From a virus, in IMG/VR virus record IMGVR_UViG_3300042301_005010, positions 3,341-67,340 of that record: 64,000 nucleotides of DNA. One strand, written 5' to 3'. This document shows positions 16,045 through 37,061 of this stretch, in pieces (the first letter of the stretch is position 1; each line of letters opens with the position of its first letter). The notes under the pieces were generated by a model. That model saw only the letters and a list, made by a program, of their open reading frames with translations, had not been told where the DNA came from and made no database searches. A program made the translations under genes and the position numbers.

Positions 16045-18009
16045 GTGACGATCGGTTTCCTGCAAGACGCTGATTCCCGTTCTGAATGGCGGCTTGATGG
16101 CGCCCTGATCAACGTCCTCACCGGCCTGGGCACCGCAAAGGACCGAAACGAGGCGATCGGCGTCAAGGGCTCCCGGATCCTCTCTGAGTCTGCTGTCAAT
16201 GCCCTCTATGAGCAGAGCTTTCTGATCCGCCGGATCGTGGAGAAACTCCCCCAGCAGGGCACCCGCAGCGGCTGGGACCTGTCGGTGGGGGATGAAACCT
16301 CCAGCCGCATGAAGGCCCAGCTCGACGATGTCGTTGGTTGGACCGAAAAGCTCCACCTGCGCCAGGGCCTGGCCGCGGCCGCCACCTACAGCCGCCTTTA
16401 TGGCGGTGGCGCCCTGGTGGTGATCGCCGACGACCGCACGCCGATCGACAAACCTCTGAACCTCAGGCGGCTCCAGACCATCCACGGCTTCTACCCGATC
16501 GATCGTTGGCGCCTCTACCCCGCCGCCGGCTGGTCCGGCATCGGCGAGCCGGAAAACTACTGGTTCTGGACTCAGGCCGATCGGGAGCTGCAGAAGCTCA
16601 ACGATCAGGCGGGCAGCAAGGTAATGACCAGTGCTGGCCTGGGCCTCACCGAAGCCACCCAAATTGAGATCCACAGCAGCCGGGTGATCCGCATCGAGGG
16701 GCTCCCCTGCTCCTGGCGCTCCCAGCAACAGCGGCAGTGGTGGGGGCTTTCTGTGGTGGACCTGGTCTGGGATGTCTTCAAGCGGTGGGAGACCGGTCAG
16801 CAATCGGCGGCCGACATCCTCCACGACTTCGACCTGGTGGTGCACAAGCTGCCGGGCCTGGCCAACATGCTCGCCAGCGGTGGGGAGGACAAGCTCCGCC
16901 AACGGCTGCAGGCCAACGCCCTGGCCCGCAGCACCATCGGCGCCTACCTCCTGAACGACGGCGAGGAGCTCACCAACCTCAACCGCTCGGCAGCCGGCAT
17001 CGCCGACATCATCGCCAACCTCAAAAGCGAGATCACCGGCGCCTCCGGCCTGCCCCACACCCTGCTATGGGGTGAGTCCCCCTCCGGCCTGGGGGCCGAC
17101 GGTCGCAGTGAACAGGCCGCCTTTGGCAACGACGTGGCCGACTGGCAGGCCCAGCACCTCAAAGAGCCCCTGCGGCGGGTCTACGAGGTGGTGATGGCCT
17201 GCGCCGATGGCCCATGGGCAGGGAAAGCCCCCCCCGCCGACTGGGAGATCACCTTCCGGCCCACCTACACCCCCACGGAAGACGAACAGGCTGAGCTGCG
17301 GTCAAAGGTCGCGACAGCCGACGCCCAGTACATCCAAGCCGGTGTGCTGCAGCCCAACGAGGTGGCCCTGGCCCGCTTCGGGAAACCCCGCTTCAGCCTG
17401 GACACCACTCTGTTGAATCGGGAGGCCGATGGATCCATCCCCCAGCCGAAGCAGCCGGAGGCGGTGGAGTTTGGCGGCAGCCTCGAGGGCGCTCCAGCGG
17501 CGGCCCCTGATGCTGCCCCTGCAGAGGAGAATCCAGCCATCACCGGCCCCGCTATCCCCGAGGCCCCCCCCCGCGCCGATTCCGACGACGAACCCTGCTG
17601 CAGCGACTGTGAAACGCGATCGCAGGAGTTGGCAGAGAAGATCAGCAGCAACCGGGCCCGCCGCAAGCGGCGCCGGGATGAGGAGCCCCGCAACGATGCC
17701 ACCGGCCAGGTGGTGGAGATCCTGGGGGTGGCGATCCGCATGGATGGCCCCGGAATCGGCCGCCTGCTGGGCCCCTACGGGCAGACCCTGCCCTATCCCG
17801 TGGCGGTGGGTCCTGATCTGAGCGGTGTCTGGGAGGTGTTCGAGCCCAGCAGCGGCGCCTACCTGCTGGCCATGGGGCACCAGCACCAGCGGGGGATCCG
17901 TGATGCCATCGGCGCCGAGCCCACCATTCGCCGGATCAGTGCCATCGACCTGGTAGCCATGGGCGCCCTGTGTGATGCCTACCTTGCCGGAGATAGGGCA
18001 GAAGGATGA
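16045..18009 (+). CDS. Portal protein (DUF1073 type) with C-terminal extension
   Basis: N.LTGLG, LY....IRRIV, RLYGGG, IHSSRV, WGLS, SGLPHTLLWGESPSGL; lies downstream of the terminase. Confidence 0.9.
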   Translation: MTIGFLQDADSRSEWRLDGALINVLTGLGTAKDRNEAIGVKGSRILSESAVNALYEQSFLIRRIVEKLPQQGTRSGWDLSVGDETSSRMKAQLDDVVGWTEKLHLRQGLAAAATYSRLYGGGALVVIADDRTPIDKPLNLRRLQTIHGFYPIDRWRLYPAAGWSGIGEPENYWFWTQADRELQKLNDQAGSKVMTSAGLGLTEATQIEIHSSRVIRIEGLPCSWRSQQQRQWWGLSVVDLVWDVFKRWETGQQSAADILHDFDLVVHKLPGLANMLASGGEDKLRQRLQANALARSTIGAYLLNDGEELTNLNRSAAGIADIIANLKSEITGASGLPHTLLWGESPSGLGADGRSEQAAFGNDVADWQAQHLKEPLRRVYEVVMACADGPWAGKAPPADWEITFRPTYTPTEDEQAELRSKVATADAQYIQAGVLQPNEVALARFGKPRFSLDTTLLNREADGSIPQPKQPEAVEFGGSLEGAPAAAPDAAPAEENPAITGPAIPEAPPRADSDDEPCCSDCETRSQELAEKISSNRARRKRRRDEEPRNDATGQVVEILGVAIRMDGPGIGRLLGPYGQTLPYPVAVGPDLSGVWEVFEPSSGAYLLAMGHQHQRGIRDAIGAEPTIRRISAIDLVAMGALCDAYLAGDRAEG

Positions 18010-20138
18010 GCCTGGCGGTTTCGCTACAGCACCGGCTTGATGCCCTCAGGCGGAAATGCACCACCGGCTATGGGTGCGGCAGCAGTTGCATCAGCCTGCG
18101 CAAGGAATGCCGCACCAGCCCCCGCAGCGCCATCGGGAAGGAGCGGATGAAGCGGCTCCTGGAGCTCGCCGGCGGCGGGGCCTCCTCCCAGCGGGGCATT
18201 GCCCCGGTGAAGGGGAAGGAAGCCGGTGATCTTGCCGGCAGCATTGCCACCCGCCGGGGGGAAAAGGCGGGCCAACTGAAGGGCGCCCGCCAGCAGGCGG
18301 CGGCTGAGAAGGCCCAGGCAGCAGCAGAGAAGCAAGCGGTTGAGGCTGCAGCAGCCAAGGCAGCCACGCCCCCCTCCAGCACTGGCACCGGCATGGCCCC
18401 AGCCGGCACGCCCCGGGGAGAAGCCGATCGGGCAGCCAAGGAAGCGGACCCCGACTACAAATTCGCCCGGGCATCGGCCGTCGGCAACGCAGGAGAGGAC
18501 ATCGGCGACTCCGCCCGCCACAAGCGCAACGCATTCCGCACCATCGAAGAAGCCGAGGCCAGCGGCCAAGTGGAGAAGGTTCTCACCAGGGACAACCTGA
18601 TGAAAAACTTTCCCACCGACCTGATCAGCGGTGCCAGCGAAAGCAACATCCTGTCCCGCCTGGAGGCTCATTTCAGTCTCAAGGCCTTCCCCAGCCTCTC
18701 ACCCAAGGACGTGGACTCCTACGTCAAAACGCAGGAGCGCTTTCAAGACGGCGAAAGAACATATGCCGGCCGTCAAATACAAGAAGTTGATGCAAAGACC
18801 GTTCGCAAGCAATACTTCGATGCTTTCCAGTCCCTCCGCAAGGTCGTCGACGATGGCAAAGACTCAGAGCCAGGCGAGCTGAGGAAACAAGTACAAAGGA
18901 AACTATCAGACCTGATCTCAGAGATTCGAGGACAGGAAGGCACCGGATATTTCCGCACCTACAGAGACCCTTACAACCCAACCGCCAATGTACTAATCTC
19001 CATGCAAAGGCGCATGTATCAAAAAGGCACTACAAGTGTCCTTGGGCAGATGAATGCGTTTGCTGTTGCCCTGAAGAAAGAAGGGCAGATGGTCGAAGCC
19101 AGGCCAACCATGGAGCGAGCCCTGGATGCTGGCACCAAGATCATGGAGGGCTCCAGCATGGCCGCGGCCTTTGGCCAGCAAGGCAACGGCAAGTGGCGCT
19201 TCAACCCTGCCGACCACTACGTCGGTTATGCACGGCGCGAGGGTGGCCGCAATGTGGGAGGCACCCCTGACGCGGCAACCGACACGATCGTGAAAGGCCT
19301 CGGGTTCCGGGGTCTCCAGTACGGCAACTCAGTCACAGACGACGAGCGAAAGCACCACGTACAGAAGGCGGCTGAGGCCCTGGTGGACCTGGCAGATGCC
19401 ACAGGCCTGCCTGACAGCGCCATCGGTTTGAACGGAACCCTTGGCCTGGCCGTCGGCGCCAGGGGCCGCGGCGGCGCCGTTGCGCACTATGAACCAACCA
19501 TGAAGGTCATTAACCTCACCCGCAAAAAAGGCGTCGGCAGCCTGTCCCACGAATGGGGCCACGCCCTGGACAACTACGCCGCCGGCGGGGGAAGCTTTTT
19601 GTCGCAAAACAGTGGTGCGCCAGAAAAGCGTGCCGCAATGAACGAGGTGAAGAGCGCCTGGACGACAAGCGGCTTCACGCGACAGGTGTATGACTCAATT
19701 CGCGAGGTCAAAAAGGCCGGGGGCCAGCTCAGTGACGATTATTGGCTGAGTGATGTGGAAATGTTTGCCCGGTCGTTCGAGGCCCACGTCTCACTGAAGC
19801 TGGAGAAGGCTGGCAGATCCAACACCTATCTCACCAGAGAGTTTGATGACTCTGGGATGAAGAAGGGCAATGCAGCAGAGCGGCGCCTGGGTGATGGCCT
19901 GTGGCCCACCAGGAAACAGGCCGAGGCGATGGAGCCCATGTTTGATGCCCTGCTGGCCCAGATCAAGAAGGATGACTTTCCAGGAGCCAGCAACCGCCGG
20001 GACAGCCGTGAGCAGCGGATCCAGCGGCTGCTCCAGGAGGCCTACCAGGCCGCTGCCGCCGATCAGCGAGCTCATGCGAGGACGCTCCAGCAAAGGAGCG
20101 ACGCCCTGCGGGCAAGCTGCACCCCCTTGAATGGCTGA
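18006..20138 (+). CDS. Polyvalent-type protein: Cys module plus LPD1 zincin-like domain; probable internal head protein
   Basis: FRGLQYGN, LGLAVGARG.G...AHYEP...INLT, SLSHEWGHALD (HExxH), YW....EMFARSFE. Confidence 0.8.
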   Translation: MSLAVSLQHRLDALRRKCTTGYGCGSSCISLRKECRTSPRSAIGKERMKRLLELAGGGASSQRGIAPVKGKEAGDLAGSIATRRGEKAGQLKGARQQAAAEKAQAAAEKQAVEAAAAKAATPPSSTGTGMAPAGTPRGEADRAAKEADPDYKFARASAVGNAGEDIGDSARHKRNAFRTIEEAEASGQVEKVLTRDNLMKNFPTDLISGASESNILSRLEAHFSLKAFPSLSPKDVDSYVKTQERFQDGERTYAGRQIQEVDAKTVRKQYFDAFQSLRKVVDDGKDSEPGELRKQVQRKLSDLISEIRGQEGTGYFRTYRDPYNPTANVLISMQRRMYQKGTTSVLGQMNAFAVALKKEGQMVEARPTMERALDAGTKIMEGSSMAAAFGQQGNGKWRFNPADHYVGYARREGGRNVGGTPDAATDTIVKGLGFRGLQYGNSVTDDERKHHVQKAAEALVDLADATGLPDSAIGLNGTLGLAVGARGRGGAVAHYEPTMKVINLTRKKGVGSLSHEWGHALDNYAAGGGSFLSQNSGAPEKRAAMNEVKSAWTTSGFTRQVYDSIREVKKAGGQLSDDYWLSDVEMFARSFEAHVSLKLEKAGRSNTYLTREFDDSGMKKGNAAERRLGDGLWPTRKQAEAMEPMFDALLAQIKKDDFPGASNRRDSREQRIQRLLQEAYQAAAADQRAHARTLQQRSDALRASCTPLNG

Positions 20139-21519
20139 CCGCTCAATCGAGCTGATCGAGCAGCTCGACCAGGAGCTGCGGGGCCTGGAGGACCAGCAGC
20201 TGCGCAAGCTCCGGGGGATCTTCGATGAGGCCCTGCGCCGCACCATCCGCAGCCTGATGGACCGCCTGGAGCGGATCGAGGCGCAGCCCGACTACGACCC
20301 GGCCACCACCCCCGGCGCATTCCTGGGCTCCACCCCGGATGGCCAGGTGCCGATCACCCCGTTGCAGAAGAACCAGGCCAGCCTCTACCTGCAGGGCCAG
20401 CTGGCCCAGGACTTGCAGGTGATCATCAACCGCTTCCCGGCCGATCGGGCAGCCAATGCAGCACTGAACCGCGAGCTGGCGGAGCTCTACAACAAGGCCC
20501 AGGACCTGGGGACCGAGTACGCCCTCGAGCTGTCGCGGGACATGCTCCCGCCGGCCGCCGTGCTCAGCAGCCGCCACCCGTCGCTGCAGGATCCCCAGCT
20601 GCCACCGGCGGCACCACCCCCCCCCACCGACGCCCCGGCCCCGGGCAGCCCCTACCAGGAGGGGCAGAGCTTCACCAGGCTCCTGAACCTGGGGGCCGTC
20701 ATCGCCGCCTCTGAGCGGGACTTCAGGACCCTCAGCGCCAACTACCGCCGCCAGCGCAACGCCGCCACCTCCGATCGGGTCTGGGCCTCGAAGGACTACT
20801 TCTTCCGCTGGTGGAGGGACTGGGGTGATGCCGTGCAGTTCGAGACCGCCACCCAGATGGCCACGGGCGTCGACAGCCGCGCCCTGGCCCGCAACCTCAA
20901 GGCTCGCCTCCCCCACATCAACGACGCCTTCAGGAACCGGGCCGAGACCGTGGCCCGCACCGAGACCCACATTGCCGCCGGCGAGGCCAGGGAGCGGACG
21001 TTCCGCCGCGTCGGCGCCGGCTTCGTGCGGTTCGTGGCCACCGCTGACGATCGGGTCTGCGAGTTCTGCGCCCCCCGGATGGGATGCCTCTACTACGCCG
21101 GCAGCGTGAAGACCCCGATCCACCCCCGCTGCAGATGCGCCCTCTCCCCGATCACCCTGGAGTCGTTGGTGATCCAGAACCAGCTGGCGGCCAACCGTGG
21201 CGAGCGCTGGGAGGATCAGCAGCAGGCCCTGGCCGCGGCGACCCGCGAGAAGTTCGAGCAGGCCAACGGCATCAGGCCGTACCGGCCGATCGGCGGCACC
21301 GGCGAGCCCCGAGGGCCTCGGGACTACCCCCTGATGGAGCGCACCGCCCTGCCGGCCACCACCCCCAGGCTCAACACCGAGAACAATCCCGCCAACGGTG
21401 GCGCCCGGCCCTGGCCATCAGGGGATCCGGTCTGGACCCCCTCCAGGGGCTGGATCAATGCCGCCGCTCGCGAGGCCTACGAGGCCATGGTCATCGAGGT
21501 GGCTGAGCTGGAGGTGTGA
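20131..21519 (+). CDS. Minor head protein (Mu gpF/SPP1 gp7 family)
   Basis: RAETVARTE, ATADDRVCEFC, HPRCRC. Confidence 0.9.
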   Translation: MADRSIELIEQLDQELRGLEDQQLRKLRGIFDEALRRTIRSLMDRLERIEAQPDYDPATTPGAFLGSTPDGQVPITPLQKNQASLYLQGQLAQDLQVIINRFPADRAANAALNRELAELYNKAQDLGTEYALELSRDMLPPAAVLSSRHPSLQDPQLPPAAPPPPTDAPAPGSPYQEGQSFTRLLNLGAVIAASERDFRTLSANYRRQRNAATSDRVWASKDYFFRWWRDWGDAVQFETATQMATGVDSRALARNLKARLPHINDAFRNRAETVARTETHIAAGEARERTFRRVGAGFVRFVATADDRVCEFCAPRMGCLYYAGSVKTPIHPRCRCALSPITLESLVIQNQLAANRGERWEDQQQALAAATREKFEQANGIRPYRPIGGTGEPRGPRDYPLMERTALPATTPRLNTENNPANGGARPWPSGDPVWTPSRGWINAAAREAYEAMVIEVAELEV

Positions 21520-21779
21520 TCAGTCCTGATCTCAGGCATCGGGTCGAGGCCGTAGAGCTGGCGGAAGGTAAAGACAAGTCCGTCCGTTGCCTCACGATGA
21601 CTCCACAGCCAGCTTGCAACCGCGGCCGGCAGGTAGTCGGCTGACACGCTGACGCCGGGGAAATCCTTGTGGACCAACCACGCTGAGCCGAGGCCAGTGA
21701 CGTGCTGCCTAAATCCGCGGGCGATCCATTCCCCGCCCGTTGGCGGTTCATTGATCGGTTGGGCTGCATCAGTGACCAT
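21477..21779 (-). CDS. Hypothetical accessory protein
   Basis: ATG preceded by the repeated leader element. Confidence 0.55.
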   Translation of the reverse strand: MVTDAAQPINEPPTGGEWIARGFRQHVTGLGSAWLVHKDFPGVSVSADYLPAAVASWLWSHREATDGLVFTFRQLYGLDPMPEIRTDHTSSSATSMTMAS

Positions 21780-21815
21780 GGGGAGCGTGCAATGGGGGGG
21801 GAAGGGGGCCGGATG
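21777..21815 (-). repeat. Repeated gene-leader element (also 22165-22222 and, on +, 42648-42702)
   Basis: CATCCGGC-C-rich-ATTGCACGCTCCCC-ATG. Confidence 0.8.
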
Positions 21816-21816
21816 T

Positions 21817-22167
21817 TCAGCGATGCGGCGGTTTCTTTATCTCTTTCAGAGATGAGTCGAAGATGTAAGGGCTGTCGATCTTCCCAGCCTCGACGGCGGC
21901 GGCAGCGTATGCCCGGCCAAACTCAGCAAAAGCGTATTCGGCCTGCTTCATTGTCGCCAGGACCTGGTTCATCTGCTTGCCAACCGACCGAACAACTTCG
22001 GCGTAGCGCCGGATGCGTGCAGAGAACAGCTCCTCAGGCTTCGCAGGCCAGAGCTTGTCCCACTGCATCTGGCCCCAGATGGTGCCGCATCTTAAGGGGG
22101 CAGTGTTGACCCAGTGGATGCGACCGATCCGGCCTCCGGTGCTGGTGAAGGAAATGAAGGTGTCCAT
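21817..22167 (-). CDS. Hypothetical accessory protein
   Basis: ATG preceded by the repeated leader element; lower GC. Confidence 0.55.
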   Translation of the reverse strand: MDTFISFTSTGGRIGRIHWVNTAPLRCGTIWGQMQWDKLWPAKPEELFSARIRRYAEVVRSVGKQMNQVLATMKQAEYAFAEFGRAYAAAAVEAGKIDSPYIFDSSLKEIKKPPHR

Positions 22168-22222
22168 GGGGAGCGTGCAATCGGGAAGGGGTGCCGGATG
22201 GGCCCCGGCGGGCCGTGGATGA

Positions 22223-22750
22223 TCAGGCCTCGAGGGCCTTGCGGACCTGGTAGCGGGTGAGCCCCAGTGTGCCTGCAATCTCGCGCTGGCTGAGCCCCTG
22301 AGAGGCGAGGTGCCAGATCGACAGCGGGGCGACGTTGGCTGCCGTGCGGGCCGGCGGCGGGGCTGGGGCCAGCCGCTGAACGACCATCAAGTCGCACCCG
22401 GGCCGGCGCTGAACGATCGTCTGTACCGTTGCCGAGCCTTCTAGGCCTGCGAAGTCGATTCCGACGACCATGGCGGGAGCTGCCGAGGAATCCTCGGTAG
22501 CTGAACCTGTAAGCCCGGCTTTCAAGTTGCCCCCTGGCAGCCCCAGACGTGCCAGGCCGTGAAGCTGGTGCTTCTGGGCCCAGGCCACCAGCTGGTGCCA
22601 GCTCTCGCCGGCCATGAAACCCAGCGTGTAGATCAGGGCCACCACCGCACCGATGCGGCGGGCAGCGGCATGGAGCGTGGGGCCCCAGTCGGAGGAGAGC
22701 CCCCGGGTGATGGTCTTCAGATCGGGAACGGTGATGCAGATCGTGGTCAT
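22223..22750 (-). CDS. Protein with a hydrophobic segment and C-terminal HTH
   Basis: IGAVVALIYTLGFMAG; LASQGLSQREIAGTLGLTRYQVRKAL. Confidence 0.65.
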   Translation of the reverse strand: MTTICITVPDLKTITRGLSSDWGPTLHAAARRIGAVVALIYTLGFMAGESWHQLVAWAQKHQLHGLARLGLPGGNLKAGLTGSATEDSSAAPAMVVGIDFAGLEGSATVQTIVQRRPGCDLMVVQRLAPAPPPARTAANVAPLSIWHLASQGLSQREIAGTLGLTRYQVRKALEA

Positions 22751-22879
22751 CGGTCTTTCCTATGGCGATTCCGGCGGCTGCTCAGAGCCTGCGCGGGGTG
22801 GGTTGTAAGGCGGTTTCAGCAGGGCCACTCAGGGCTCTTCTGCTGACCCAAAAACCGTACCACGTTTTGCTGTGCGATG

Positions 22880-23120
22880 GGCACGGCTCAGGACAGGCAC
22901 GGATTATGCACCAGCCCCCAGACCCCTTGCTATCACTGGCTTGGCACTACGACATCCGCGAGATTGACGAGGATTTGTATCTTGCAGTTCTGGCCTATCG
23001 TCGCAGTCAAAACGCAGCCACTGACAGCGATCTGAGCGGCACGGCAGCACGGCCTTAAGGGACAGGAAGGGACAGCAAGGGACTGGAAAGACGTACGTTA
23101 TGCACGGCCCGTGCATAACT
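22880..23120. promoter_or_regulatory. Putative attP region
   Basis: Gap 5' of the integrase. Three phased 10-bp repeats AAGGGAC(A/T)G(G/C) at 23057-23086. Inverted repeat GTTATGCAC/GTGCATAAC at 23097-23119, with another TTATGCAC at 22904. Confidence 0.6.
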
Positions 23121-23158
23121 GCCAGGTCTGCTCCCCGGACGTTTCGTATTCGCCGCCC

Positions 23159-24163
23159 ATGGCATCGATCACCGCCCAAAAGGGCCGGCTCTACCTGCTG
23201 GCCAACCTGCCGCGACGCGATGGGGCTCCAGGGCTGCGGCAGTCCCGCATCGCCCTGAAGCTGGACGACACGCCGATCAACCGGCGCGCCGCCTTGAAGC
23301 AAAAGCAGACCCTGGAGCGGCAACTGGAGGAGGGCTCCTTCGCCTGGGCCTACTGGCTGGACGAGGCATCAGGGACGATCACGTGGCGCGAGGCCATTGC
23401 CAGGCTCTACCGGGCTCGGGTGGTGCTCGGCCGCACGGGGCAAAGCACGTGGGAGATCAACTATCTGGGGAGGCTGCGGCAGATCCCGCCGACCAGCGCC
23501 TGCACGACCGCCAGCATGGCCAAGGCTCTGGAGCGCTACGACCGCAGCACGTGCAGCTACAAGGAGCTGTTCTACCTTCTGCGGCATCTGGCCAGGTTGG
23601 TGGCGGTGCCGTTCCCGGAGGTGCCGTTGCCCACCTACAACCAGGCCCAGTTGGTGGCGGTGCCCACCGACGAGCAGATCATTGCGTGGGTGGAGGGGGC
23701 GCCCGATCCGGTGCGCTGGTACTGGGGAATGATGGCCACCTACGGCCTGCGGCCCCATGAGATCGAGGGGGCGGTGCTGATCAATCGCGATCTCTGCCAG
23801 GTGGCCGAGGGCACAAAGACGGGTTTCAGAACGGTTGTGCCGCTGCCCCGTGAGTGGGTCGGGCTGTTCGGGTTGCGGGATCGGCGGTTGCGGCCTCGCC
23901 TGGAGGGGAGCACCGATCGTCCGGATGCGGTCAGCAAGTGGTTGCACAAGGAGCTTCGGCGCCAAAGGCTGCCGTGGCGGCCTTACTCACTGCGCCATGC
24001 GTACGGCGGGAGGCTATGGCGAGAGGGCGGCAGCAGGCTTGACATCTACACCGCTGCTCGCCTGATGGGTCACACCCCAGGCCAGCACTCCCGGACCTAC
24101 CGCGCTCACATTCAGCCGCATCAGGTGGCAGAGGCGGCGGAAAGGGCGTTAGGGGGAGGCTGA
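23159..24163 (+). CDS. int: Tyrosine integrase
   Basis: MATYGLRPHE (R), KTG (K), YSLRHAY (xxLRH), LMGH and TY (catalytic Y). Confidence 0.92.
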   Translation: MASITAQKGRLYLLANLPRRDGAPGLRQSRIALKLDDTPINRRAALKQKQTLERQLEEGSFAWAYWLDEASGTITWREAIARLYRARVVLGRTGQSTWEINYLGRLRQIPPTSACTTASMAKALERYDRSTCSYKELFYLLRHLARLVAVPFPEVPLPTYNQAQLVAVPTDEQIIAWVEGAPDPVRWYWGMMATYGLRPHEIEGAVLINRDLCQVAEGTKTGFRTVVPLPREWVGLFGLRDRRLRPRLEGSTDRPDAVSKWLHKELRRQRLPWRPYSLRHAYGGRLWREGGSRLDIYTAARLMGHTPGQHSRTYRAHIQPHQVAEAAERALGGG

Positions 24164-24376
24164 GGGCTGCCCCACTCCCGGCGCCACCGCCGCAACATTC
24201 ACCCGCACGCAGCGCCTGCTGCTGCCCACCGGCGCCAGGTCGATCAGCTCCCGGCCCCAGCGCCAGCGGGACTTGCGGTTGGCGTCGGCTTCGTGGATGA
24301 GCCTTTTGATATGGCGTTCGGAAACCCTCAACGCCTCAGCGGCTTCCGTGACCGTCAGCAGCACGCGAGCGGCCAT
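24149..24376 (-). CDS. Excisionase-like HTH protein
   Basis: LLTVTEAAEALRVSERHIKRLI; convergent with the integrase. Confidence 0.75.
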   Translation of the reverse strand: MAARVLLTVTEAAEALRVSERHIKRLIHEADANRKSRWRWGRELIDLAPVGSSRRCVRVNVAAVAPGVGQPSASP

Positions 24377-24554
24377 CAGTGGCACTCCTCTGCGCGAGGC
24401 GGTAAAGGTGCGTTGTAGTCGAGAAACAGGACACCCCCTGCGTCGCCCTCTTGACTCCAGCAGCGCAGGGCGTAAGCCTCGGTTGGCGTTTCCGGCGTGA
24501 TCGTCAACACGCCTTTCTCGTCAACACGCCTTTCTCGTCAATTTCGGCTTTCAT
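24376..24554 (-). pseudogene. Small ORF frameshifted by a 17-bp tandem duplication (24501-24541)
   Basis: Removing one unit gives MKAEIDEKGVLTITPETPTEAYALRCW...EECH*, with an ATGA overlap to ASCH and a TGATG overlap to xis. Confidence 0.75.
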
Positions 24555-24946
24555 GACTGCACCCCCGGAACATCAAAAAAGCGGAGCTGACCCTTGAAGG
24601 GAATAAACTCCAGCGGCTTTGGACCGCTCAAGACAAACCCATAAGGGCCTTGAAACCATGGTGAATCAGACTGGTAAACGCAATCAGTAAGATTTACGCT
24701 GCCAATGATGCCGCCGCGAGGCAAGTTGCCTGGTTCAAAGGAATCAAGCAAGTGTCCAATCCTGCACAAGCCATTGGTATCGGCATAATCCATCGCATCT
24801 AGGTATTCCCTTTTTGTCATGCCTTTAGCCGCATGGATCAAGATCCGCCCTCGCACTTTTGTCTCCCATGTGCGGTTTTCGATGTTCTTGCCAGCCAGCA
24901 GGATCAAGCTGGCCCATGGCTGGCGGATGGATAGGGCAAGGGTCAT
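24551..24946 (-). CDS. ASCH domain protein
   Basis: ALSIRQPWA....GKNIENRTW....RG.ILIHA, GGIIG.V, KGQL.FF. Confidence 0.92.
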   Translation of the reverse strand: MTLALSIRQPWASLILLAGKNIENRTWETKVRGRILIHAAKGMTKREYLDAMDYADTNGLCRIGHLLDSFEPGNLPRGGIIGSVNLTDCVYQSDSPWFQGPYGFVLSGPKPLEFIPFKGQLRFFDVPGVQS

Positions 24947-25272: not shown

Positions 25273-25451
25273 GCCGCTAGCCCCTGTACGTGCAGGGCGG
25301 CGCGGATGCCCATGTCGGCGCCGAAGGCCCGGCAGATCGAACCGGCCGCGGCCCAGGCCGCAGTGCCCACGCCGGCATGGGCCGGCGCCGCATGGCAGGC
25401 GCCGAGCGTCAGCAGGGCGGTTGTGATCGCAAAGCGGAAAAACGATGTCAT
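25269..25451 (-). CDS. Small exported/membrane protein
   Basis: Signal-peptide-like MTSFFRFAITTALLTLGACHAAPAHA. Confidence 0.5.
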   Translation of the reverse strand: MTSFFRFAITTALLTLGACHAAPAHAGVGTAAWAAAGSICRAFGADMGIRAALHVQGLAA

Positions 25452-25547
25452 TGATCCGGGTCGGCTCAGTCCGGGGATGATCGGATCATACCCCCACAGT
25501 CGAACTGATGTATTGTTGTTACGCACTCACAACGTAGCGATCTCATC

Positions 25548-26582: not shown

Positions 26583-26584
26583 CA

Positions 26585-29580: not shown

Positions 29581-29823
29581 ATGGTGCAGCTGGCCACTGA
29601 GCTGCTGAGTGAACAGATCCGCCCGGTGCGGATCGTGTCGATCTCCGATGCCGGTGGTGAGCCCCAAGGCGAGTTCGTATCGAACCAGACGCGATTCACC
29701 TTCAAGTTCACCAAGGGCGGAATGGTGACCTACAAGCCCAAGGGCCAGGGCGGCGGCGGCCGGGAGGACAGCGATCTCCAGGCCCGGATTGAGCGCATTA
29801 AAACCCGTCTCGGAGCATCGTGA
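29581..29823 (+). CDS. Small protein paralogous to the N-domain of 30254, ending in REDSDLQARIERIK
   Basis: Pattern similarity by eye; start may be GTG 29563. Confidence 0.6.
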   Translation: MVQLATELLSEQIRPVRIVSISDAGGEPQGEFVSNQTRFTFKFTKGGMVTYKPKGQGGGGREDSDLQARIERIKTRLGAS

Positions 29824-30257: not shown

Positions 30258-33200
30258 GTCGCCACCAGTCCCTGCTGGATCGCCTCTCGGCCATCGAGGC
30301 CCAGCTCGTCTCGACGAACCGGCAGGCCCTGCCCCGGCGGCCCATGGCCCTGCGGCATGACGCTGGCGATCGGGTCTCCCCGGTGCTGCAGCAGCTACTG
30401 GCCGAGGTGCTTCCCGGCGCCCTGGTGCTCGACTGGCGGCAGGAGGGTGCTGCCCATGCCGGGCGGATGGCCGCCGATGGCCTGGTCTTTCAATTCCGTG
30501 TCGATGCCGAAGGCGTCGGCTATCGCCCCGCTTGGGAGGGGGTGCTGCAGCGTGGCTGGGAGCTGCGATCGGATTCGTTCCTGCAGCTGCGGGCCCCCGG
30601 CTCCCGGATGGACTTCCGCCGCACCCGGGCCGGCAGTGGCCAGAAGCGGAAATGCGCCACCGGCTACGGCTGCGGCAACGCCTGCATCTCCCTCCAGAAG
30701 GAGTGCCGGATCGCCCCCCGTTCAGCGCTCGGCAAGGGCCGCCTGCGGCGCCTCCAACAGCTGGCTGCCGCCGGCGACCAGTCGGCCGGGGCCACCGCCA
30801 GCCAGGTGCAGGCCTCCCGCGGGGCGGCCGCAGCGGCCCTGCAGAAGGACCGCACCACCCAACGGGTGCAGAAGCTGCTCGAGCGGCCGGAGATTGCCGA
30901 GTTCCTGCGCACCGGCAAGCTCCCCGCCACGGCCAACAGCTCCACCGAGCCCGGGACCGTCCGGGAGATGAAGCCAGGGGAGATCGGCTTCGATCCCTCC
31001 CGGTTCCAGTACAAGCTCAACGCCACCGCCACCACCGGCGAGGTGGGCAGCCTGTCGGGGGTGCGCAAGTGGGACGCCAACCTTTCCGGCGTGATGGCTG
31101 TCTGGAAGGACCCAGGCGACGGCAAGGTCTACGTGATCAATGGCCATAACAGGCTGGCCCTGGCCAACCGCCTGGGGGCGGAGGCCGTCACGGTGCGGTT
31201 CCTCAATGCCGCCACCGCCACCGAGGCCCGGGCGATCGGGGCCCTGCAGAACATCGCCGAAGGGGCAGGCTCCCCCATGGATGCGGCCAAATTTTTCCGC
31301 GACACCGGCATCAAAAACCAGCAGGACGTGGAGGCCCGGGGCCTGCCCCTGGGCAGCGGCCAGGCCGCGAAGGGGCTGAGCCTCAGCAAGCTCCCCGGCG
31401 ACGTGTTCAACGCCGTGGTGCGCGGGGACCTGACGGAGAACCGCGGGGCGATCATCGGCGGTAGTGGCCTCGATGACACGAAGCAGCGGGAGGTGTTCAA
31501 GATGATCGGCTCCCGCAAGGCCATCACCGATCAGACCCTGCAGGAGCTGGTGGAGCATGCCGCTGCCAGCGTGCAACGCACCCAGACCACGATGAGCCTG
31601 TTCGGCGAGACCGAGGAGGCGAAAGACAACTTGATCACCCGGGCCAAGCTCTCCGCCTCCCTGAAGGCCAAGATCAGCCGCGAGAAGAGGTTGTTCGCCA
31701 CCGTCAGCAAGGCCAAGGCCGCCACCAGCCTGACCGAGAAGGGGGGGAACGTGATCAATCAGGAGCAGAGCGCCAAGGTGGCCGGCGAGGCCAGCGAGGC
31801 CCTGGGGGTGTTCGAGCGGCTGAAGAGCAGCGCCGGCCCGATCAGCTCTGCCCTCAACCGTGCCGCCGATCGGGTGGAGGCCGGCGAGGCCGAGGCCACG
31901 GTGCGGAAGGAGCTGGAGCGCGATGTCTTCGCCGCTGTCGAGCAGGAGCTGGTGTCGGTAGGGCTGCGCAAGCGGCCCCGGGCCGACAGCCTGCAGGAAC
32001 GGATCGATGCCCTCAAACGGAAATGCAGCACCGGTTACGGCTGCGGGTCGGCCTGCATCAGCCTCCGGAAGGAATGTCGCACCACTCCCCGCAGCGCCAT
32101 CGGGAAGGAGCGCATGAAGCGGCTGCTGGCCCTGGCCCAGGGCGAAATCAAGCCCAAGGGGATAGGTGTGCCTAAAGCAGCCGAAGCGGCCACCATGGCG
32201 GCTGATCTGCAGGGTCGGCGCACCGGCCAGGCTCAGGAGCTGCGATTCCAGCGCCAGGCTGCTCGTCGAGCCAAGGCTGGTCAAGAGAAACAAACCAATC
32301 CCTACCGGCCAACTCCGCAAATTAAGGAGGGCGTCACCTTAAAGCCAATGAGCATCGCTGCAGGAGGCGATACAAACTACGATCCAGCAGTAGAGAAGAG
32401 AAAAGCAGCGGGTGGCCTGAAGTATTACCGCACCCAGCGTGGAGGAGCCACCAAGCAAAACTACTTTTTCCGGGATCGCCAGGCAGCAGAGCACTGGTAC
32501 GCAGACCACAACGCTAAAAGTGACGCGGATGCCGAGGAGGGCACCCATAATCGCCGTGGCAACGAGTGGCAGGCCGAGTACAAGGCCTCCTATGTGGGCA
32601 ATCGAAACCTTCTGCGAGACACCAGCGACCGCGAAGTGCTGGAGACAGTTGAGGCCTTTGCAGCTGCCGGCACAGCAACAAGAGGGGGGACCGCAACAGA
32701 TGTGCGCATCGGTGGCAACAAGCATTCCAGGCCGATTCGAGAGGGCACGTTTGCAAATGGGAACGCATCAGAAGGCTCACCCCAGCCGGTGCTGACCAAC
32801 CCCGGCCGCCAGGATCCCGGCCTAGCCCCCAACGCCAAGCAGCCAGGCCTCAACGCCCAGGACGTGACCACCAGCAAGCAGCAGGCCGCCTTCGCCCGGC
32901 AGCAGCAGCAGGCAGCCCAGGCCGCCGGGGATCAATCCGGGGCTCAGGCCTGGCAGAAGGAGGAGCGGACGGTGGAGCGCAACCGGCTGGCCACCGCCAT
33001 CTCCAGCAGCAAGCAGAGCCAGAGCTCGCTGTTTGGGGTCACCGAATACGACGAGACCATGCCGCTGTTCAAGGGACAACCCGCCAGCACCCCCAGCACC
33101 GGCGGAAGCCTGGCCGTCCAGTCCGGCGGTGGAGCAGCCGCCCGGCCCACGGCGGCCGGCCCTGCCTCCAAACCCGGCAGCGTCTCACAAGCCCTCAAGC

Positions 33201-33688
33201 AGACCCTGGGGGCCCTCAGGGCCGCCGACGCCCGGCAGATGGGCATGATTGCTGAGCAGCTCTTCGAGGCCGGCTGGACGATCGACCGCCGCACCCGCTA
33301 CCGGGGCATGAGCAAGGATCAGGCCCGGGAGAAGTTCAAAATCGAGTTTGCCCAGAAGATGCAGGCCCAGGCCAGCTCCCCTGAAGCTGCCGCCCGATCC
33401 GCGGCAATGCGCAACCGTGCCGGCGCCTCCGGAACGGTCTCTGGTGCCCTGAAGAGCGTGCTCGAGGACATGAAGGCCCAGGACAAGCGGCTGAACGATC
33501 TCCAGAAGCAGACGATCGACCTGCGCATCCAGGCAGAGGAGCAGTTTGGTGGTGAGGAGGGCGAAGATCAATCGCTGGGTGGTGGCCGGCCGCGGCGGCG
33601 CCTCGGCGGCGGCCGCCGCCGGGATGCCGACATCCTCGAAGCCCGGATTGACGCCCTGCGGGTCCAATGCGCCACCATGAGCCGATGA
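30254..33688 (+). CDS. Large polyvalent-type protein: two Cys modules plus a ParB/Srx-like domain; probable internal head protein
   Basis: RFQYK, VYVINGHNRLALA, ALQNIAEG; two KC.TGYGCG.ACISL.KECR modules. Confidence 0.78.
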   Translation: MSRHQSLLDRLSAIEAQLVSTNRQALPRRPMALRHDAGDRVSPVLQQLLAEVLPGALVLDWRQEGAAHAGRMAADGLVFQFRVDAEGVGYRPAWEGVLQRGWELRSDSFLQLRAPGSRMDFRRTRAGSGQKRKCATGYGCGNACISLQKECRIAPRSALGKGRLRRLQQLAAAGDQSAGATASQVQASRGAAAAALQKDRTTQRVQKLLERPEIAEFLRTGKLPATANSSTEPGTVREMKPGEIGFDPSRFQYKLNATATTGEVGSLSGVRKWDANLSGVMAVWKDPGDGKVYVINGHNRLALANRLGAEAVTVRFLNAATATEARAIGALQNIAEGAGSPMDAAKFFRDTGIKNQQDVEARGLPLGSGQAAKGLSLSKLPGDVFNAVVRGDLTENRGAIIGGSGLDDTKQREVFKMIGSRKAITDQTLQELVEHAAASVQRTQTTMSLFGETEEAKDNLITRAKLSASLKAKISREKRLFATVSKAKAATSLTEKGGNVINQEQSAKVAGEASEALGVFERLKSSAGPISSALNRAADRVEAGEAEATVRKELERDVFAAVEQELVSVGLRKRPRADSLQERIDALKRKCSTGYGCGSACISLRKECRTTPRSAIGKERMKRLLALAQGEIKPKGIGVPKAAEAATMAADLQGRRTGQAQELRFQRQAARRAKAGQEKQTNPYRPTPQIKEGVTLKPMSIAAGGDTNYDPAVEKRKAAGGLKYYRTQRGGATKQNYFFRDRQAAEHWYADHNAKSDADAEEGTHNRRGNEWQAEYKASYVGNRNLLRDTSDREVLETVEAFAAAGTATRGGTATDVRIGGNKHSRPIREGTFANGNASEGSPQPVLTNPGRQDPGLAPNAKQPGLNAQDVTTSKQQAAFARQQQQAAQAAGDQSGAQAWQKEERTVERNRLATAISSSKQSQSSLFGVTEYDETMPLFKGQPASTPSTGGSLAVQSGGGAAARPTAAGPASKPGSVSQALKQTLGALRAADARQMGMIAEQLFEAGWTIDRRTRYRGMSKDQAREKFKIEFAQKMQAQASSPEAAARSAAMRNRAGASGTVSGALKSVLEDMKAQDKRLNDLQKQTIDLRIQAEEQFGGEEGEDQSLGGGRPRRRLGGGRRRDADILEARIDALRVQCATMSR

Positions 33689-34140: not shown

Positions 34141-35463
34141 GTGCAGTTTCGTTTCGATCGCTCAAGCCTGCCCGCCAGCTTTCTGGAAACCCCAGAGGGC
34201 TATTTGCGCGTGCGTGGGACGTTCTCCCGCAGCGGCTGCCAGACCTACACCAACCCGGATGGGTCTAAGCGGGTCGAGTATCGCCCGCCGGAGGAGGTGT
34301 CCCGCCCGGATTCCCTCCTGTCGATGGGCGGCCTGCCGGTGACGCTGGAGCATCCGCCCCAGCTGCTCACGCCCGACACCGTGCGGCAACACACCCGGGG
34401 CCACAGCGGCACCCAGGTGGAGTTCACCGACGGCTTCGTGCATGGCACCGTCACCTTGACGGATCGCGAAGCCATCGAGGCCGTCAAGCGCCGCGATGCG
34501 GTGGAGCTCTCTGTGGGCTACCGCTGCGACTACGACCCCACCCCAGGCACAGCCCCCGATGGCACCCGATACGACGGGGTGCAGCGCAACATCAGCGGCA
34601 ATCACCTAGCCGTCACCCGTCAGGCCCGCGCGGGCTCCGAAGTGCGGCTGCACTTCGACTCCGCCGATGCCGACGACCCGCCGATTGTTGCCGTCTCCGC
34701 CGATCTCCTCCCTTCCCTCCCTGAGGCCACCCCCATGCCCGCCCCCGCTCAAACCTCTGACCGTGCCGACATGAAGAACCCCCCCGCCAAAGCCGACGCC
34801 AAGGCCAAGGCCAAGGCCAAGGCCGAGGAGGAGATGGACCCTGAAGCCATGGAAGGCGACGACGGCATGGCCGGTGACGACGACCAGGAGAAGGAAGACG
34901 GCTACGACATGGCCAAGGGCAAGAAGACCCGTGGCGACTCTGCCACCCCCGGCCGCAACGTGCCCTGGGAGGTTTACAAAGCCACCGTCGATGATCTGGC
35001 CGCCGCTGAGTTGCGGTTCGACAGCCTCTCCGTGCAGCTCTCTGAGCTGGAGCAGCTGGTGGCTGAGCGCACCGATTCTTCTCCCGAGCCCGATCCTGAG
35101 CTGATCCAGCAGCTGGTGGCCGAGCGGGTCGATGTGCTGGAGAAGGCCGGCATGCTCTCCGGCAAGCGGGAGCGCCATGACGGCCTCTCCAACCGCGAGG
35201 TGATGGAGCTGGCCCTCGAGGCTGCTGAGGTGCGGATCGACGGGATCGAGGACCGCAGCGACGAATACGTCGCTGCCCGTTTCGATGCCGCCTACGAGAC
35301 CGCCGCAGCGATCCCCTACTTCCCCGGTGCCGCCAACCTGCTGGCCCGCCAGCTGCAGGGCATCACCACCCCCCGCAGCGACAGCAGCGGCGACGGCATC
35401 GCTGCAGCCGCGGCGGAGCACCAGCAGGCGGTGGCGAATGCCTGGCAGGCCACGGCCGCCTGA
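34141..35463 (+). CDS. DUF2213 prohead protease-scaffold
   Basis: TPEGYL, YRPPEEV, PVTLEHP, ELSVGY, Q.NI.GNHLAV...RAG; acidic/coiled C-terminal half. Confidence 0.9.
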   Translation: MQFRFDRSSLPASFLETPEGYLRVRGTFSRSGCQTYTNPDGSKRVEYRPPEEVSRPDSLLSMGGLPVTLEHPPQLLTPDTVRQHTRGHSGTQVEFTDGFVHGTVTLTDREAIEAVKRRDAVELSVGYRCDYDPTPGTAPDGTRYDGVQRNISGNHLAVTRQARAGSEVRLHFDSADADDPPIVAVSADLLPSLPEATPMPAPAQTSDRADMKNPPAKADAKAKAKAKAEEEMDPEAMEGDDGMAGDDDQEKEDGYDMAKGKKTRGDSATPGRNVPWEVYKATVDDLAAAELRFDSLSVQLSELEQLVAERTDSSPEPDPELIQQLVAERVDVLEKAGMLSGKRERHDGLSNREVMELALEAAEVRIDGIEDRSDEYVAARFDAAYETAAAIPYFPGAANLLARQLQGITTPRSDSSGDGIAAAAAEHQQAVANAWQATAA

Positions 35464-35509: not shown

Positions 35510-36073
35510 ATGGCCCAGACCTTCACCAATAACGCCGGCACCGTTTTCGCCGGTGTTGGCCGCGACTACCCCATGCAGATGGGCATCGGCCGCATCGGTG
35601 AGCTCGCCGACATCAGCAACAGCACCATCATCAGCGGCAATAACGAAACGACCGCCCGTATCCTCTTTGGCATCCCGCTCATCCGGAACGGCTCTGGCGT
35701 CCTGCCCAACTCTGTCACCCCTGCGGTGGCCGCCTCCACGATCTTTGGCTTGAGCGTCCTGACCGACGTCCATGAGGTTTCCCACCGCCAGGCAGCGACG
35801 CCGTATCAGGAGGGCATCGAGCCCAACGATGCGGTGAACGTCCTGAAGGTCGGCGCCATCTACATCGATTGCTGGGAATCTCTCGCCCCCGGCAACGCCC
35901 TGCGCTACTTCAAGAGCGGCATCTACGCGGGCCGCTGGGGCAAAACCGCCAGCACCGGCAACAGCCTCAACTTCTCCGCCGGTGGCTGGGAGATCGAGCG
36001 TCCGGCGGCTGCTGGTGGCCTGGCCATCGTGCGCTTCAACACCCCGGCGGCTCTGGTTGTCACCGCTGACTGA
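35510..36073 (+). CDS. Head decoration/cement protein
   Basis: Lies between protease and capsid; I.FG, VNVLKVG.IY. Confidence 0.7.
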   Translation: MAQTFTNNAGTVFAGVGRDYPMQMGIGRIGELADISNSTIISGNNETTARILFGIPLIRNGSGVLPNSVTPAVAASTIFGLSVLTDVHEVSHRQAATPYQEGIEPNDAVNVLKVGAIYIDCWESLAPGNALRYFKSGIYAGRWGKTASTGNSLNFSAGGWEIERPAAAGGLAIVRFNTPAALVVTAD

Positions 36074-36128: not shown

Positions 36129-37061
36129 ATGAGCCACCGCCTGGACAACTACAACGAGGGAGCGTTCCTCGCCGATCAGCTGCAGCACATCATCCCTGGT
36201 GTGCTGCGCAAGCCCTACGCCGAGATCGTCTACCCCAAAATCTGCCCCGTCAGCTTCGAGGTGAACCCCGGCGCCACGTCGATCAAGCGCACGATCTGGG
36301 ACCGCACCGGCAACTACGACCTGATCTCCGATGCTGCCGACGACCTGCCGGTGTCCGGCGTGAAGGTCGGGGAGATCGTCAACGAGACGAGAGAATTTGG
36401 TGGATCATTCGTCTACACCCAGTCCGAGCTGCTGTCGGCAAAAATGGCCGGCGTGGCCCTCACCAGCGAGCGCGCCGATGCGGTGCGCGACGCCTACGAG
36501 CGCCGCAACAACACCACCTGCCTGTTCGGTCGGGCAGGCACCGGCCTGCGCGGCATGCTCAACCACCCCGCCATCGACCGTGTGGTGGTGACCGGAAACT
36601 CCTCTGATGCCTGGTTCAACGACCCCAACACCACGCCCCAGCAGATGCTCGATCTGCTCAACTACGGGGTCACTCAGATGCGCGCCAACTCCAAGCAGGT
36701 GGAGCAGCCCGACTCCGTGCTGATGGGTGAGTCGGACCATCGGATCGTTAGCACCACCTGCCGCTCCTCCACCGACAACACCACGGTGCTGGAGCTGTTC
36801 CTGAAGATGAACCCCAGCATCAAGTCGGTGGAGCCGATCAACGAGCTCGACCCGGCCAACTCCGGCGGCAACCTCACCGCTCGCCGGATGCTCTTCTACC
36901 GGAAGGATCCAACCAAAGGGAAGTTTCACATCCCCCTGCCCCTCACCTTTCTCCCCCCCCAGCCGAAGAACCTCAAGTTCATCGTTCCCTCGATGAGCAA
37001 GCTCGGCGGATTCATCCCCGAATTCCCCCTCGCGTTCCTCTACATCGAGGACGGCGGCTGA
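36129..37061 (+). CDS. Major capsid protein (DUF2184, encapsulin-like HK97 fold)
   Basis: FL..QL..I, ADDLP, Y...EL..A, G..GL.GMLNHP, P.TFLPPQ, GG.....P.A. Confidence 0.9.
   Translation: MSHRLDNYNEGAFLADQLQHIIPGVLRKPYAEIVYPKICPVSFEVNPGATSIKRTIWDRTGNYDLISDAADDLPVSGVKVGEIVNETREFGGSFVYTQSELLSAKMAGVALTSERADAVRDAYERRNNTTCLFGRAGTGLRGMLNHPAIDRVVVTGNSSDAWFNDPNTTPQQMLDLLNYGVTQMRANSKQVEQPDSVLMGESDHRIVSTTCRSSTDNTTVLELFLKMNPSIKSVEPINELDPANSGGNLTARRMLFYRKDPTKGKFHIPLPLTFLPPQPKNLKFIVPSMSKLGGFIPEFPLAFLYIEDGG

Follow-up and report, generated by a model that had tools for sequence, protein, structure and literature searches.

We think it probable that the prohead protease encoded by a tailed phage related to Synechococcus siphophage S-CBS4 cuts after aspartate at a three-residue motif, [RK]-x-D (arginine or lysine, any residue, then aspartate). 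The virus is IMG/VR record IMGVR_UViG_3300042301_005010, a 67,340-bp sequence with direct terminal repeats that is rated complete, and the 64,000 nucleotides that we analyzed (the window) are its bases 3341-67340. The protease belongs to the DUF2213 family, and its gene, near the capsid gene, appears from modelling to be a fusion of a serine protease with a helical C-terminal scaffolding domain. Once the procapsid is built, the protease would cut after Asp in [Arg/Lys]-x-Asp, usually with Ala, Ser or Gly next. It would chop its own scaffold, at ten sites per 267 residues, into short peptides able to exit the shell, trim its own N-terminus, and take a six-residue leader off the capsid protein (MSHRLD↓N, the arrow marking the putative cut) and about 18 residues off the portal (WRLD↓G). 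With lower confidence, cuts in linkers of the portal C-terminal extension and of two polyvalent proteins would free modules inside the head. The core of this proposal, that scaffold, capsid leader and protease are cut after Asp at such motifs, is likely to be right; cutting of the portal and polyvalent proteins is plausible but unproven, and at best an even call. We infer that the cuts are made by the phage's own protease, and the exact scissile bond likewise.

The scaffold half of the DUF2213 protein (the 267 residues after an LHFD that ends at residue 173) has 14 arginines, and 10 of the 14 stand in R-x-D, the count given in a preliminary description of this DNA. The number expected is 1.5 (binomial p 1.5e-7), and none of 100,000 shuffles gave 10. 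Among 1280 residue-pair motifs with gaps of 0-4 residues, R-x-D is the most extreme in the scaffold half, the runner-up reaching p 0.003. A homologous scaffold that is 94% identical also has 10, against 1.34 expected (p 5e-5 with shuffles inside 20-residue blocks). In the window protein, Asp is followed by A, S or G at 7 of 10 scaffold sites and, over its full length, at 10 of 15 R-x-D. The protease domain contributes R4-F-D6 at the N-terminus, RPD55, RRD117, RCD128 and RYD143. One could suppose that the motif is a by-product of composition, picked out afterwards from a genome of 65% GC (guanine plus cytosine) with abundant Arg, Asp, Ala and Gly; the motif was in fact chosen after looking, and plain R-x-D is at chance in the portal and in one polyvalent protein. 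Against this, neither global nor local shuffles ever reach the observed counts, the excess survives correction for 1280 motifs, the other 52 open reading frames (ORFs) of the window are at expectation for the refined motif described below, and AT-rich T1-like phages show the lysine version. On the shuffles and the 52-ORF null we reject chance or composition, which we regard as a very improbable explanation. The enrichment over shuffled sequence that the preliminary description had made a check of its idea was therefore found, under global and local shuffling alike.

The same pattern runs through the scaffolds of the family. A full-library HMMER search found 10,969 DUF2213 clusters (50% identity) at E<=0.001; among phage records, 1,842 match the family. 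Our family counts use the best 150 of the 10,969 clusters, 147 of which have 120 or more residues of scaffold; these 147 representatives share less than 50% identity with one another. Their scaffolds contain 791 R-x-D against 223 expected (z=38, the top pair motif), and shuffles inside 20-residue blocks gave 227 +/- 15, with a maximum of 263. Expectation is exceeded in 145 of the 147, at p<0.01 in 80. Arg and Asp at gaps of 0, 2, 3 or 4 are at or under expectation in these scaffolds and D-x-R is not enriched, whereas K-x-D is enriched 1.7-fold. Asp is followed by A, S or G at 531 of the 791 sites. In the scaffold alignment the bulk of the excess is confined to about 12 columns, and about six columns fit [RK]-x-D-[ASG]: Arg and Lys replace each other there, Asp hardly changes and the flanks vary. 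The motif is better written as [RK]-x-D, usually with A, S or G next, and in AT-rich phages Lys stands in for Arg.

The protein that carries this scaffold is probably a protease of a known fold. The PF09979 match scores 140.1 bits against a cut-off of 22 and is the sole one, also in a whole-genome search; the phrog_530 match spans residues 1-435. An AlphaFold2 (AF2) model built on an 81-row alignment has a mean predicted local distance difference test score (pLDDT) of 78. It shows a confident, beta-rich domain at residues 14-159 (pLDDT >90), disordered acidic residues at 174-268, and scaffold helices at 276-312, 319-340, 351-361, 374-390, 398-409 and 419-439; seven of the ten scaffold sites fall in loops, in disordered sequence or at the ends of helices. 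A search of PDB sequences with the protease gave no match. Foldseek placed T4 gp21 first (5jbl, E 6.4e-4, probability 1.00, template modelling score 0.50 on the target), and further top matches were the proteases of Epstein-Barr virus, Kaposi's sarcoma-associated herpesvirus and human cytomegalovirus. The structural alignment to gp21 has 10-12% identity, and sequence similarity is undetectable. The model thus assigns the domain the fold of T4 gp21 and the herpesvirus assemblins. H71, S124 and H155 are invariant across the 81 aligned sequences and are candidates for the catalytic triad.

The motif also stands at the N-termini of three head proteins, as the preliminary description had said, and it is conserved there in homologues. 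The window protease opens MQFRFD (from a GTG start read as M), followed by Arg (RFD↓R); R4 and D6 show a conservation of at least 90% across the 81-sequence alignment, and most of the best 150 representatives open M-x(1-7)-R-[FYILV]-D. The capsid protein opens MSHRLD↓N (motif at 36138-36146). Among the homologues listed from 102 capsid matches, nearly every full-length one down to 44% identity starts M-x(2-7)-R-x-D, behind leaders that vary in length and sequence (MSHRLD, MTVRMD, MPTNTDRFD, MTFDRFD); only truncated gene calls and a 25%-identity match with H-F-D depart from this. In the portal, WRLD↓G (RLD↓G at residues 16-19) precedes the conserved body, and [RK]-x-D-[ASG] is found at reference position 16 in 112 of 116 homologues, again behind variable leaders. 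Because the leaders before the motif are variable and not conserved in all three proteins, the arrangement fits removal better than binding.

Sequenced and modelled capsid N-termini in T1-like coliphages fall where this rule would put them. These phages have genes for a DUF2213 protein, a cement protein and a PF09950 capsid protein, arranged in the same order as in the window. K-x-D with A, S or G behind it is frequent in the DUF2213 proteins of these phages, and [RK]xD numbers 12 in T1 against 4.7 expected, 14 in TLS against 4.3 and 16 in Rogue1 against 4.7. In T1, the DUF2213 protein alone among 51 coding sequences is strongly enriched in [RK]-x-D-[ASG] (11 against 1.1 expected); the other 50 together have 22 against 20.4. 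The mature TLS capsid has the Edman N-terminus ASDMGIW, according to the available text of the TLS paper (PMC11447400), and this string begins at residue 33 of the TLS capsid (gene at 15072-16061), right behind K30-N31-D32. The paper itself surmises in that text that 45 residues are lost, whereas the Edman string maps to 32 removed (PMC11447400). The T1 capsid model from cryo-electron microscopy (cryo-EM) covers residues 27 to 319 in the accessible part of its report (PMC11945409); the T1 sequence reads G-V-K24-Q25-D26↓A27-A-A-T-M-G-I-W, so the model starts right behind K-Q-D. The Rogue1 capsid reads D-K-A-D26↓A-A-G-I-W, and the Rogue1 paper, in its available text, reports that N-terminal tryptic peptides are absent and says nothing more of the capsid end. 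Aligned with a T1-type PDB chain (phmmer), the window capsid has an offset of 21, which leaves its D6 no more than one residue away from T1 D26. The six-residue leader of the window capsid therefore corresponds to the leaders of 26-32 residues in T1 and TLS. The T1-like phages differ from the window phage in using Lys for Arg, in the length of this leader, and in being without polyvalent proteins or portal extensions.

A scaffold with a known protease served as a control on the method. The T4 prohead protease gp21 cuts after Glu in [Leu/Ile]-x-Glu, and its substrates are gp22, gp23, gp24, gp67, gp68 and internal proteins. A blind pair-motif scan of the T4 scaffold gp22 returned L-x-E as the top motif (10 against 3.3 expected); [LI]-x-E numbers 16 in gp22 against 5.8 expected and 7 in gp21 against 2.6, and the T4 head proteins tested show no enrichment of [RK]-x-D. 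RefSeq notes for T4 record cutting of gp22, gp23 and gp24 by gp21. The recovery of L-x-E from gp22 indicates that the crowding of a motif in a scaffold reports the specificity of its protease.

The motif is not a property of the DUF2213 family as a whole. We compared 14 lineages for scaffold enrichment and N-terminal motifs. Five of the 14 (the window, S-CBS4, T1, TLS and Rogue1) have enriched scaffolds, and all five carry the motif at the N-termini of protease, capsid and portal; in S-CBS4 the protease motif, R-Y-D, comes shortly before the annotated start. For this S-CBS4 gene, RefSeq probably places the start (MTPEGYL) too far downstream; the open frame ahead of it reads M-S-T-T-S-C-R-Y-D-V (11977-12060) and brings back the conserved R-[FY]-D at the N-terminus. 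The other nine lineages (KpV79, MSW-3, Ssp-JY39, Vibrio K172, Shewanella 1/41, Bordetella IFTN7, XapPhi1, Pam3 and PB1) show no scaffold enrichment, and none of them has a basic-residue motif at all three N-termini; MSW-3 keeps K-F-D in the protease. We therefore reject a universal R-x-D rule for DUF2213, given PB1, Pam3 and seven more lineages without enrichment. Of the claim that R-x-D is the DUF2213 cleavage site, the core is well supported, indirectly for the window phage, by enrichment, conservation and the TLS and T1 N-termini, and its extension to DUF2213 in general is not; likewise, the enrichment expected in related DUF2213 phages holds for the 147 representatives and fails in most of the lineages sampled.

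A broader rule may lie beneath. In the nine non-enriched lineages, x-x-D↓[AS] is still present near the capsid N-terminus, and D-[ASG] is mildly enriched in motif-negative scaffolds. In PB1 and Shewanella 1/41, A-M-D-[SAG] turns up in the leader of the capsid protein, in the N-terminal region of the portal and in the scaffold, where 0.1-0.3 would be expected per protein: in PB1 at residues 62-65 of the capsid, 74-77 of the portal and 398-401 of the scaffold, and in Shewanella 1/41 at seven sites over four proteins. The PB1 capsid reads A-M-D64↓S65, and capsid residues 1-65 are described as invisible in the available text on E217, a relative of PB1 (PMC10329688). From its sequence distribution, A-M-D-[SAG] may be an alternative cleavage code, also with Asp at P1 (the residue before the cut). 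This suggests that Asp at P1 may be general to the DUF2213 family, with the upstream determinants depending on the lineage.

The preliminary description further claimed that bare R-x-D flags the proteins processed inside the prohead. The motifs that it had listed in the portal tail, in the proteins encoded from positions 18006 and 30254 (18006 and 30254 hereafter) and in ORFs 29581 and 33685 are all present as described, and ORFs 29581 (RED↓S) and 33685 (RSDG) have one R-x-D each, too few for statistics. As a flag, plain R-x-D was not borne out, and this opens a list of points that weigh against our interpretation. Plain R-x-D is near chance in the portal (5 against 3.3 expected) and in 18006 (3 against 3.6), and the integrase, a non-head protein, has 4. 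It is also near chance in the capsid (3 against 1.1, with 2 of them in the capsid body), weakly raised in 30254 (10 against 5.0, p 0.03), and absent from the cement protein (0.29 expected) and the Mu F-like protein (2.81 expected despite 50 Arg and 26 Asp). The R-x-D-free Mu F-like protein may reflect avoidance of the motif in a protein kept intact, an observation that is not significant alone. A refined motif, R-x-D-[ASG], takes its P1' preference from the scaffolds of homologues; it was chosen post hoc, after the scaffold data had been inspected, which belongs on the same list. With it, the DUF2213 protein has 10 sites against 0.83 expected, 30254 has 7 against 1.55 (p 0.0005), the portal 4 against 0.89 (p 0.013) and 18006 3 against 1.09 (p 0.09). 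Portal, 18006 and 30254 together thus have 14 sites against about 3.5 expected, and all four flagged proteins 24 against 4.4, as compared with 1 against 0.95 in capsid, Mu F-like and cement proteins together and 10 against 9.55, which is chance, in the other 52 ORFs of the window. As a flag for head proteins, plain R-x-D is rejected for the portal, 18006 and the Mu F-like protein, and it takes the refined motif to tell these apart.

In homologues of the portal and of 30254, such sites recur at borders between domains. Among 116 portal homologues, [RK]xD[ASG] is found at position 549 in 107, at 510 in 77 and at 565 in 61, with variable flanks; 12 portal representatives (60% identity) have 65 sites against 12.1 expected, and 12 of 12 are above expectation. 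These sites frame the C-terminal extension: one R-x-D-[SA] is ahead of a Cys-rich stretch, and an R-x-D-A follows a basic run directly ahead of the last domain of about 100 residues, as in 107 of 116 homologues. Portal homologues of 38-50% identity (P0436-P0473) have a PF20106 domain inserted in the extension, and one such portal is named 'anti-CBASS Acb1 family' by NCBI; the window portal tail is without this insert and retains the flanking R-x-D sites and the last domain.

Judged from LPD1 and from domains that vary between relatives, 18006 and 30254 appear to be phage polyvalent proteins. Their position among the head genes predicts that they are packaged in the capsid and injected. The 120 homologues of 30254 (P0253-P0372) have 669 sites against 184.5 expected, and 15 polyvalent representatives (60% identity) have 77 against 26.4, with 11 of the 15 above expectation. 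Homologues of 30254 share an N-terminal portion of about 58% and exchange their C-terminal Pfam domains, which include ADP-ribosyltransferase (PF03496/PF01129), Zeta-toxin-like (PF06414), protein kinase (PF00069), LPD1, M90 peptidase and MuF domains. The window 30254 has no recognized Pfam domain; a G-H-N-R stretch in it may be ParB-like. Pfam at loose thresholds and NCBIfam gave no further domain borders in the polyvalent proteins or the portal tail. In homologues, the junction between modules reads R-R-D↓[SA], 3-10 residues, then R-[IL]-D↓A-[LA]-[KR]-[KR]-K-C-x-T-G-Y-x-C-G-x-x-C. The composite pattern R.D[SA].{2,5}R[IL][DEQ] occurs only 4 times in the six frames of the window, all in head-region genes: at the C-terminus of ORF 29581, in the middle and at the C-terminus of 30254, and at the C-terminus of 18006. 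A DNA repeat (D3) links 29749-29792 with 33608-33651. A 117-nt unit, present in three copies, encodes a four-Cys stretch, K-C-x-T-G-Y-G-C-G-x-x-C-I-S-L-x-K-E-C, then a basic helix (phrog_33618), and is always just behind R-x-D-A. The AF2 model of 30254 has a mean pLDDT of 67, and sites 34, 576 and 1122 fall in linkers with pLDDT<50; three of seven sites in low-confidence linkers, against about 1.8 expected with 26% of residues of low confidence, is not significant. This placement makes the linker sites of 30254 plausible cleavage points and the others possibly structural.

These junctions might instead belong to a different process, in which the DUF2213 protease cuts scaffold and capsid only, and the R-x-D sites of the portal tail and polyvalent proteins mark a structured junction domain that is processed by the zincin of 18006 or is uncut. 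Zincin-like metallopeptidase domains have been proposed to process polyvalent proteins (Iyer et al. 2017, PMC5512222, in its available text), and 18006 has LPD1 and the zincin motif HEWGH, so self-processing stays a rival for the polyvalent proteins. In addition, the R[IL]D-A sites lie within a conserved helix and four-Cys module, encoded by the 117-nt repeat, and such repetition inflates counts. On the other hand, the upstream R-x-D-[SA] of the junctions stands at variable spacing and in predicted disordered linkers (34, 576, 1122), portal tails free of the module keep R-x-D-[ASG] at domain borders in homologues down to 38% identity, and the enrichment persists in 60%-identity representatives. 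We consider this division of labor quite unlikely. The preliminary description had read the sites of the portal tail and polyvalent proteins as cleavage sites too; homologues support that part of its proposal, and the several sites in predicted folded elements do not.

Further points belong on the list against cleavage at [RK]-x-D. Because the family sequences share ancestry and their excess lies in about 12 homologous columns, the family counts are not independent events; to us, the informative point of these sequences is a three-residue pattern kept amid drifting sequence rather than the raw counts. Three of the ten scaffold sites lie within predicted helices, as do 583 and 1131 of 30254, whose sites 82 and 105 are inside its confident folded N-terminal domain. 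The residue after Asp at the window N-termini is Asn (capsid) or Arg (protease) and not A, S or G, and six residues are an unusually small piece to remove from a capsid protein. The TLS and T1 evidence concerns one site each, in the capsid protein only, and the start of the T1 model could reflect disorder instead of cleavage. For the window phage and its close relatives, the case for cleavage is made from sequence. Finally, Pam3, otherwise without the motif, keeps the block Y-V-A-A-R-F-D, so that site at least may be structural.

Several of these points suit an alternative in which R-x-D is structural (a helix cap or salt bridge of the scaffold) or a docking motif through which scaffold, capsid, portal and cargo proteins attach to one shared site in the procapsid; it would be kept for assembly, and any cleavage would occur elsewhere. 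An Asp with a small residue behind it often caps the N-terminal end of a helix, and several scaffold sites are at helix starts; the persistence of the Pam3 block and sites 82 and 105 of 30254 are in keeping with such a role. So is a related scaffold fragment that remains bound in the mature head of Pa193, as the available text of that report has it (PMC11456595). Three observations speak for cleavage instead: the TLS Edman end and the start of the T1 model, in the sources cited above, fall exactly after K-x-D; the motif stands behind variable leaders at the N-termini of three proteins; and the unrelated scaffold T4 gp22 is without an [RK]xD excess and has the motif of its own protease. A purely structural or docking role seems to us unlikely, if worth keeping in mind, and docking and cleavage are not mutually exclusive.

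Cleavage at [RK]-x-D can be placed in a wider and more tentative scheme, which we would put at somewhat less than an even chance: DUF2213 proteases would be Asp-specific with upstream residues that depend on the lineage ([RK]-x-D in T1-like phages and this cyanophage group, A-M-D in Shewanella and PB1-like phages), and the cyanophage group would add a cargo-junction cassette for the release of injected effectors. The cassette, R-R-D↓S ... R-I-D↓A-L-K-R-K-C-x-T-G-Y-G-C-G, would separate interchangeable cargo both in the tails of portals and in the giant internal proteins. A single head protease could in this way free changing effectors (ADP-ribosyltransferases, kinases, anti-defense domains) from few precursor genes.

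The genes and sites concerned are listed in Table 1. The window is 59-67% GC, and its capsid and protease are 45-49% identical in protein sequence to those of S-CBS4, the nearest cultured relative. The head genes run in the order protease-scaffold, cement, capsid. Besides its zincin motif, 18006 has an N-terminal four-Cys module and matches polyvalent-type models (phrog_616/18947). Its residues 422-643, around HEWGH, match NCBIfam CLCA_X (NF041907) at 93 bits, under the 260-bit cut-off. Midway through the structural region is a tyrosine-integrase-like gene (23111-24163, phrog_1 1.5e-12), and the sequence around it, about 4 kb, has no convincing ORFs (region 21519-26229). A tRNA scan of the window found no tRNA gene.

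Table 1. Head-region features of the window and positions of their motifs (nucleotide positions count from the first base of the window; site numbers are protein residues).
Feature	Position	Strand	Evidence or sites
Portal protein, 654 aa	16045..18009	+	PF06381 1e-62 over residues 50-427
Portal C-terminal extension, motif sites			RAD↓S 510, RRDE 543, RND↓A 549, RMD↓G 565
Predicted polyvalent head protein 18006, 710 aa	18006..20138	+	HEWGH zincin motif; LPD1 PF18796 2.3e-13
18006, motif sites at N- and C-terminal ends			RLD↓A 10, RRD↓S 664, RSD↓A 697
117-nt unit, three copies, 70-72% identity	18041-18157, 30637-30753, 32008-32124
Mu F-like head morphogenesis protein	20131..21519	+	PF04233 1.6e-8
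Small ORF 29581, 80 aa	29581..29823	+	C-terminus GGGGRED↓SDLQARIERI, like junction module
Predicted polyvalent head protein 30254, 1144 aa	30254..33688	+	Seven R-x-D-[ASG]; junction module at 576-600
30254, R-x-D-[ASG] sites			34, 82, 105, 576, 583, 1122, 1131
30254, junction module			RAD↓S-LQE-RID↓A-LKRKC-x-TGYGCG, 576-600; truncated copy at C-terminus
DUF2213 protein	34141..35463	+	PF09979 E 8.8e-41; phrog_530 'head maturation protease' 1.5e-79
Predicted protease domain, residues 1-173	34141..34659	+	PF09979 over residues 16-170
Predicted scaffold half, residues 174-440	34660..35463	+	Acidic disordered linker, then six helices
Scaffold half, R-x-D sites			RAD208, RGD264, RFD292, RTD310, RVD329, RHD345, RID365, RSD372, RFD380, RSD412
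Cement/decoration protein, between protease and capsid genes	35510..36073	+	PF22758 6.9e-17
Major capsid protein, 310 aa, HK97 fold family	36129..37061	+	PF09950 1.4e-41

The DUF2213 family is very large and includes T1-like, Klebsiella, Pseudomonas and Vibrio phages that are used in therapy and as models. If the rule [RK]-x-D↓[ASG] is true, it would let annotators predict the mature ends of capsid, portal and scaffold proteins, aid the reading of cryo-EM maps with missing N-termini, and permit the design of capsid-targeted cargo that is released in the head. A widespread and uncharacterized protease family would gain a recognition rule that can be tested. If the junction-cassette reading is also true, it would explain how polyvalent effectors are cut, by a route unlike the published self-processing by metallopeptidases. 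In the full-text literature that we searched, we found no cleavage motif for the DUF2213 family; one may stand in subscription journals or supplements outside that search. The available texts of the T1, TLS, Rogue1, E217, Pa193 and Pam3 papers describe N-termini as missing or sequenced and name no rule: those on T1-like phages give the N-terminus and name no motif, those on E217 and Pa193 describe N-terminal residues that are missing and a scaffold fragment that is retained, again with no motif named, and that on Pam3 has nothing on processing.

Prohead proteolysis in other viruses offers both likenesses and differences. The window protease is like T4 gp21 in fold and in the many sites of the scaffold, and would be like it in a three-residue rule with an acidic P1 and in self-cleavage of the protease. 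It would be unlike gp21 in having Asp rather than Glu at P1 and a basic rather than a hydrophobic P3, and it differs in being fused to the scaffold. In P2 gpO and in herpesvirus UL26/assemblin, an N-terminal serine protease of the assemblin fold is fused to its own substrate, a C-terminal scaffold, and the herpes proteases cut at Ala↓Ser. The window protein shares this protease-scaffold layout with P2 gpO and UL26, with no sequence relationship detected in the search of PDB sequences. The prohead proteases of phiKZ and SPN3US recognize [S/A/G]-x-Glu. In these giant phages, gp175 and gp245, respectively, cut ejection proteins and capsid at a motif mapped by mass spectrometry, as described in the available text of the reports (PMC10052503, PMC5694885, PMC7411985); the window protease differs from them in family, in P1 and in its fusion to the scaffold. 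Two further systems were set aside: the capsid of phage P1 is cut after Glu (E120↓S121, PMC9024508), a mismatch to an Asp rule, and the ICP1 scaffold, which according to the ICP1 paper cleaves itself into 23- and 17-kDa products, was not used as evidence.

The closest precedent for the internal proteins is the survey of polyvalent proteins by Iyer et al. (2017, PMC5512222). In its available text, those proteins have LPD1 and a zincin motif in common with 18006 and are predicted to be packaged in the head; assemblin-like peptidases appear there only as rare C-terminal domains, with no R-x-D junction cut by a separate protease. Prohead proteases that act at short motifs are well known, and an Asp-directed rule with a basic P3, together with its use at the junctions of polyvalent proteins, would be a new variant of that theme.

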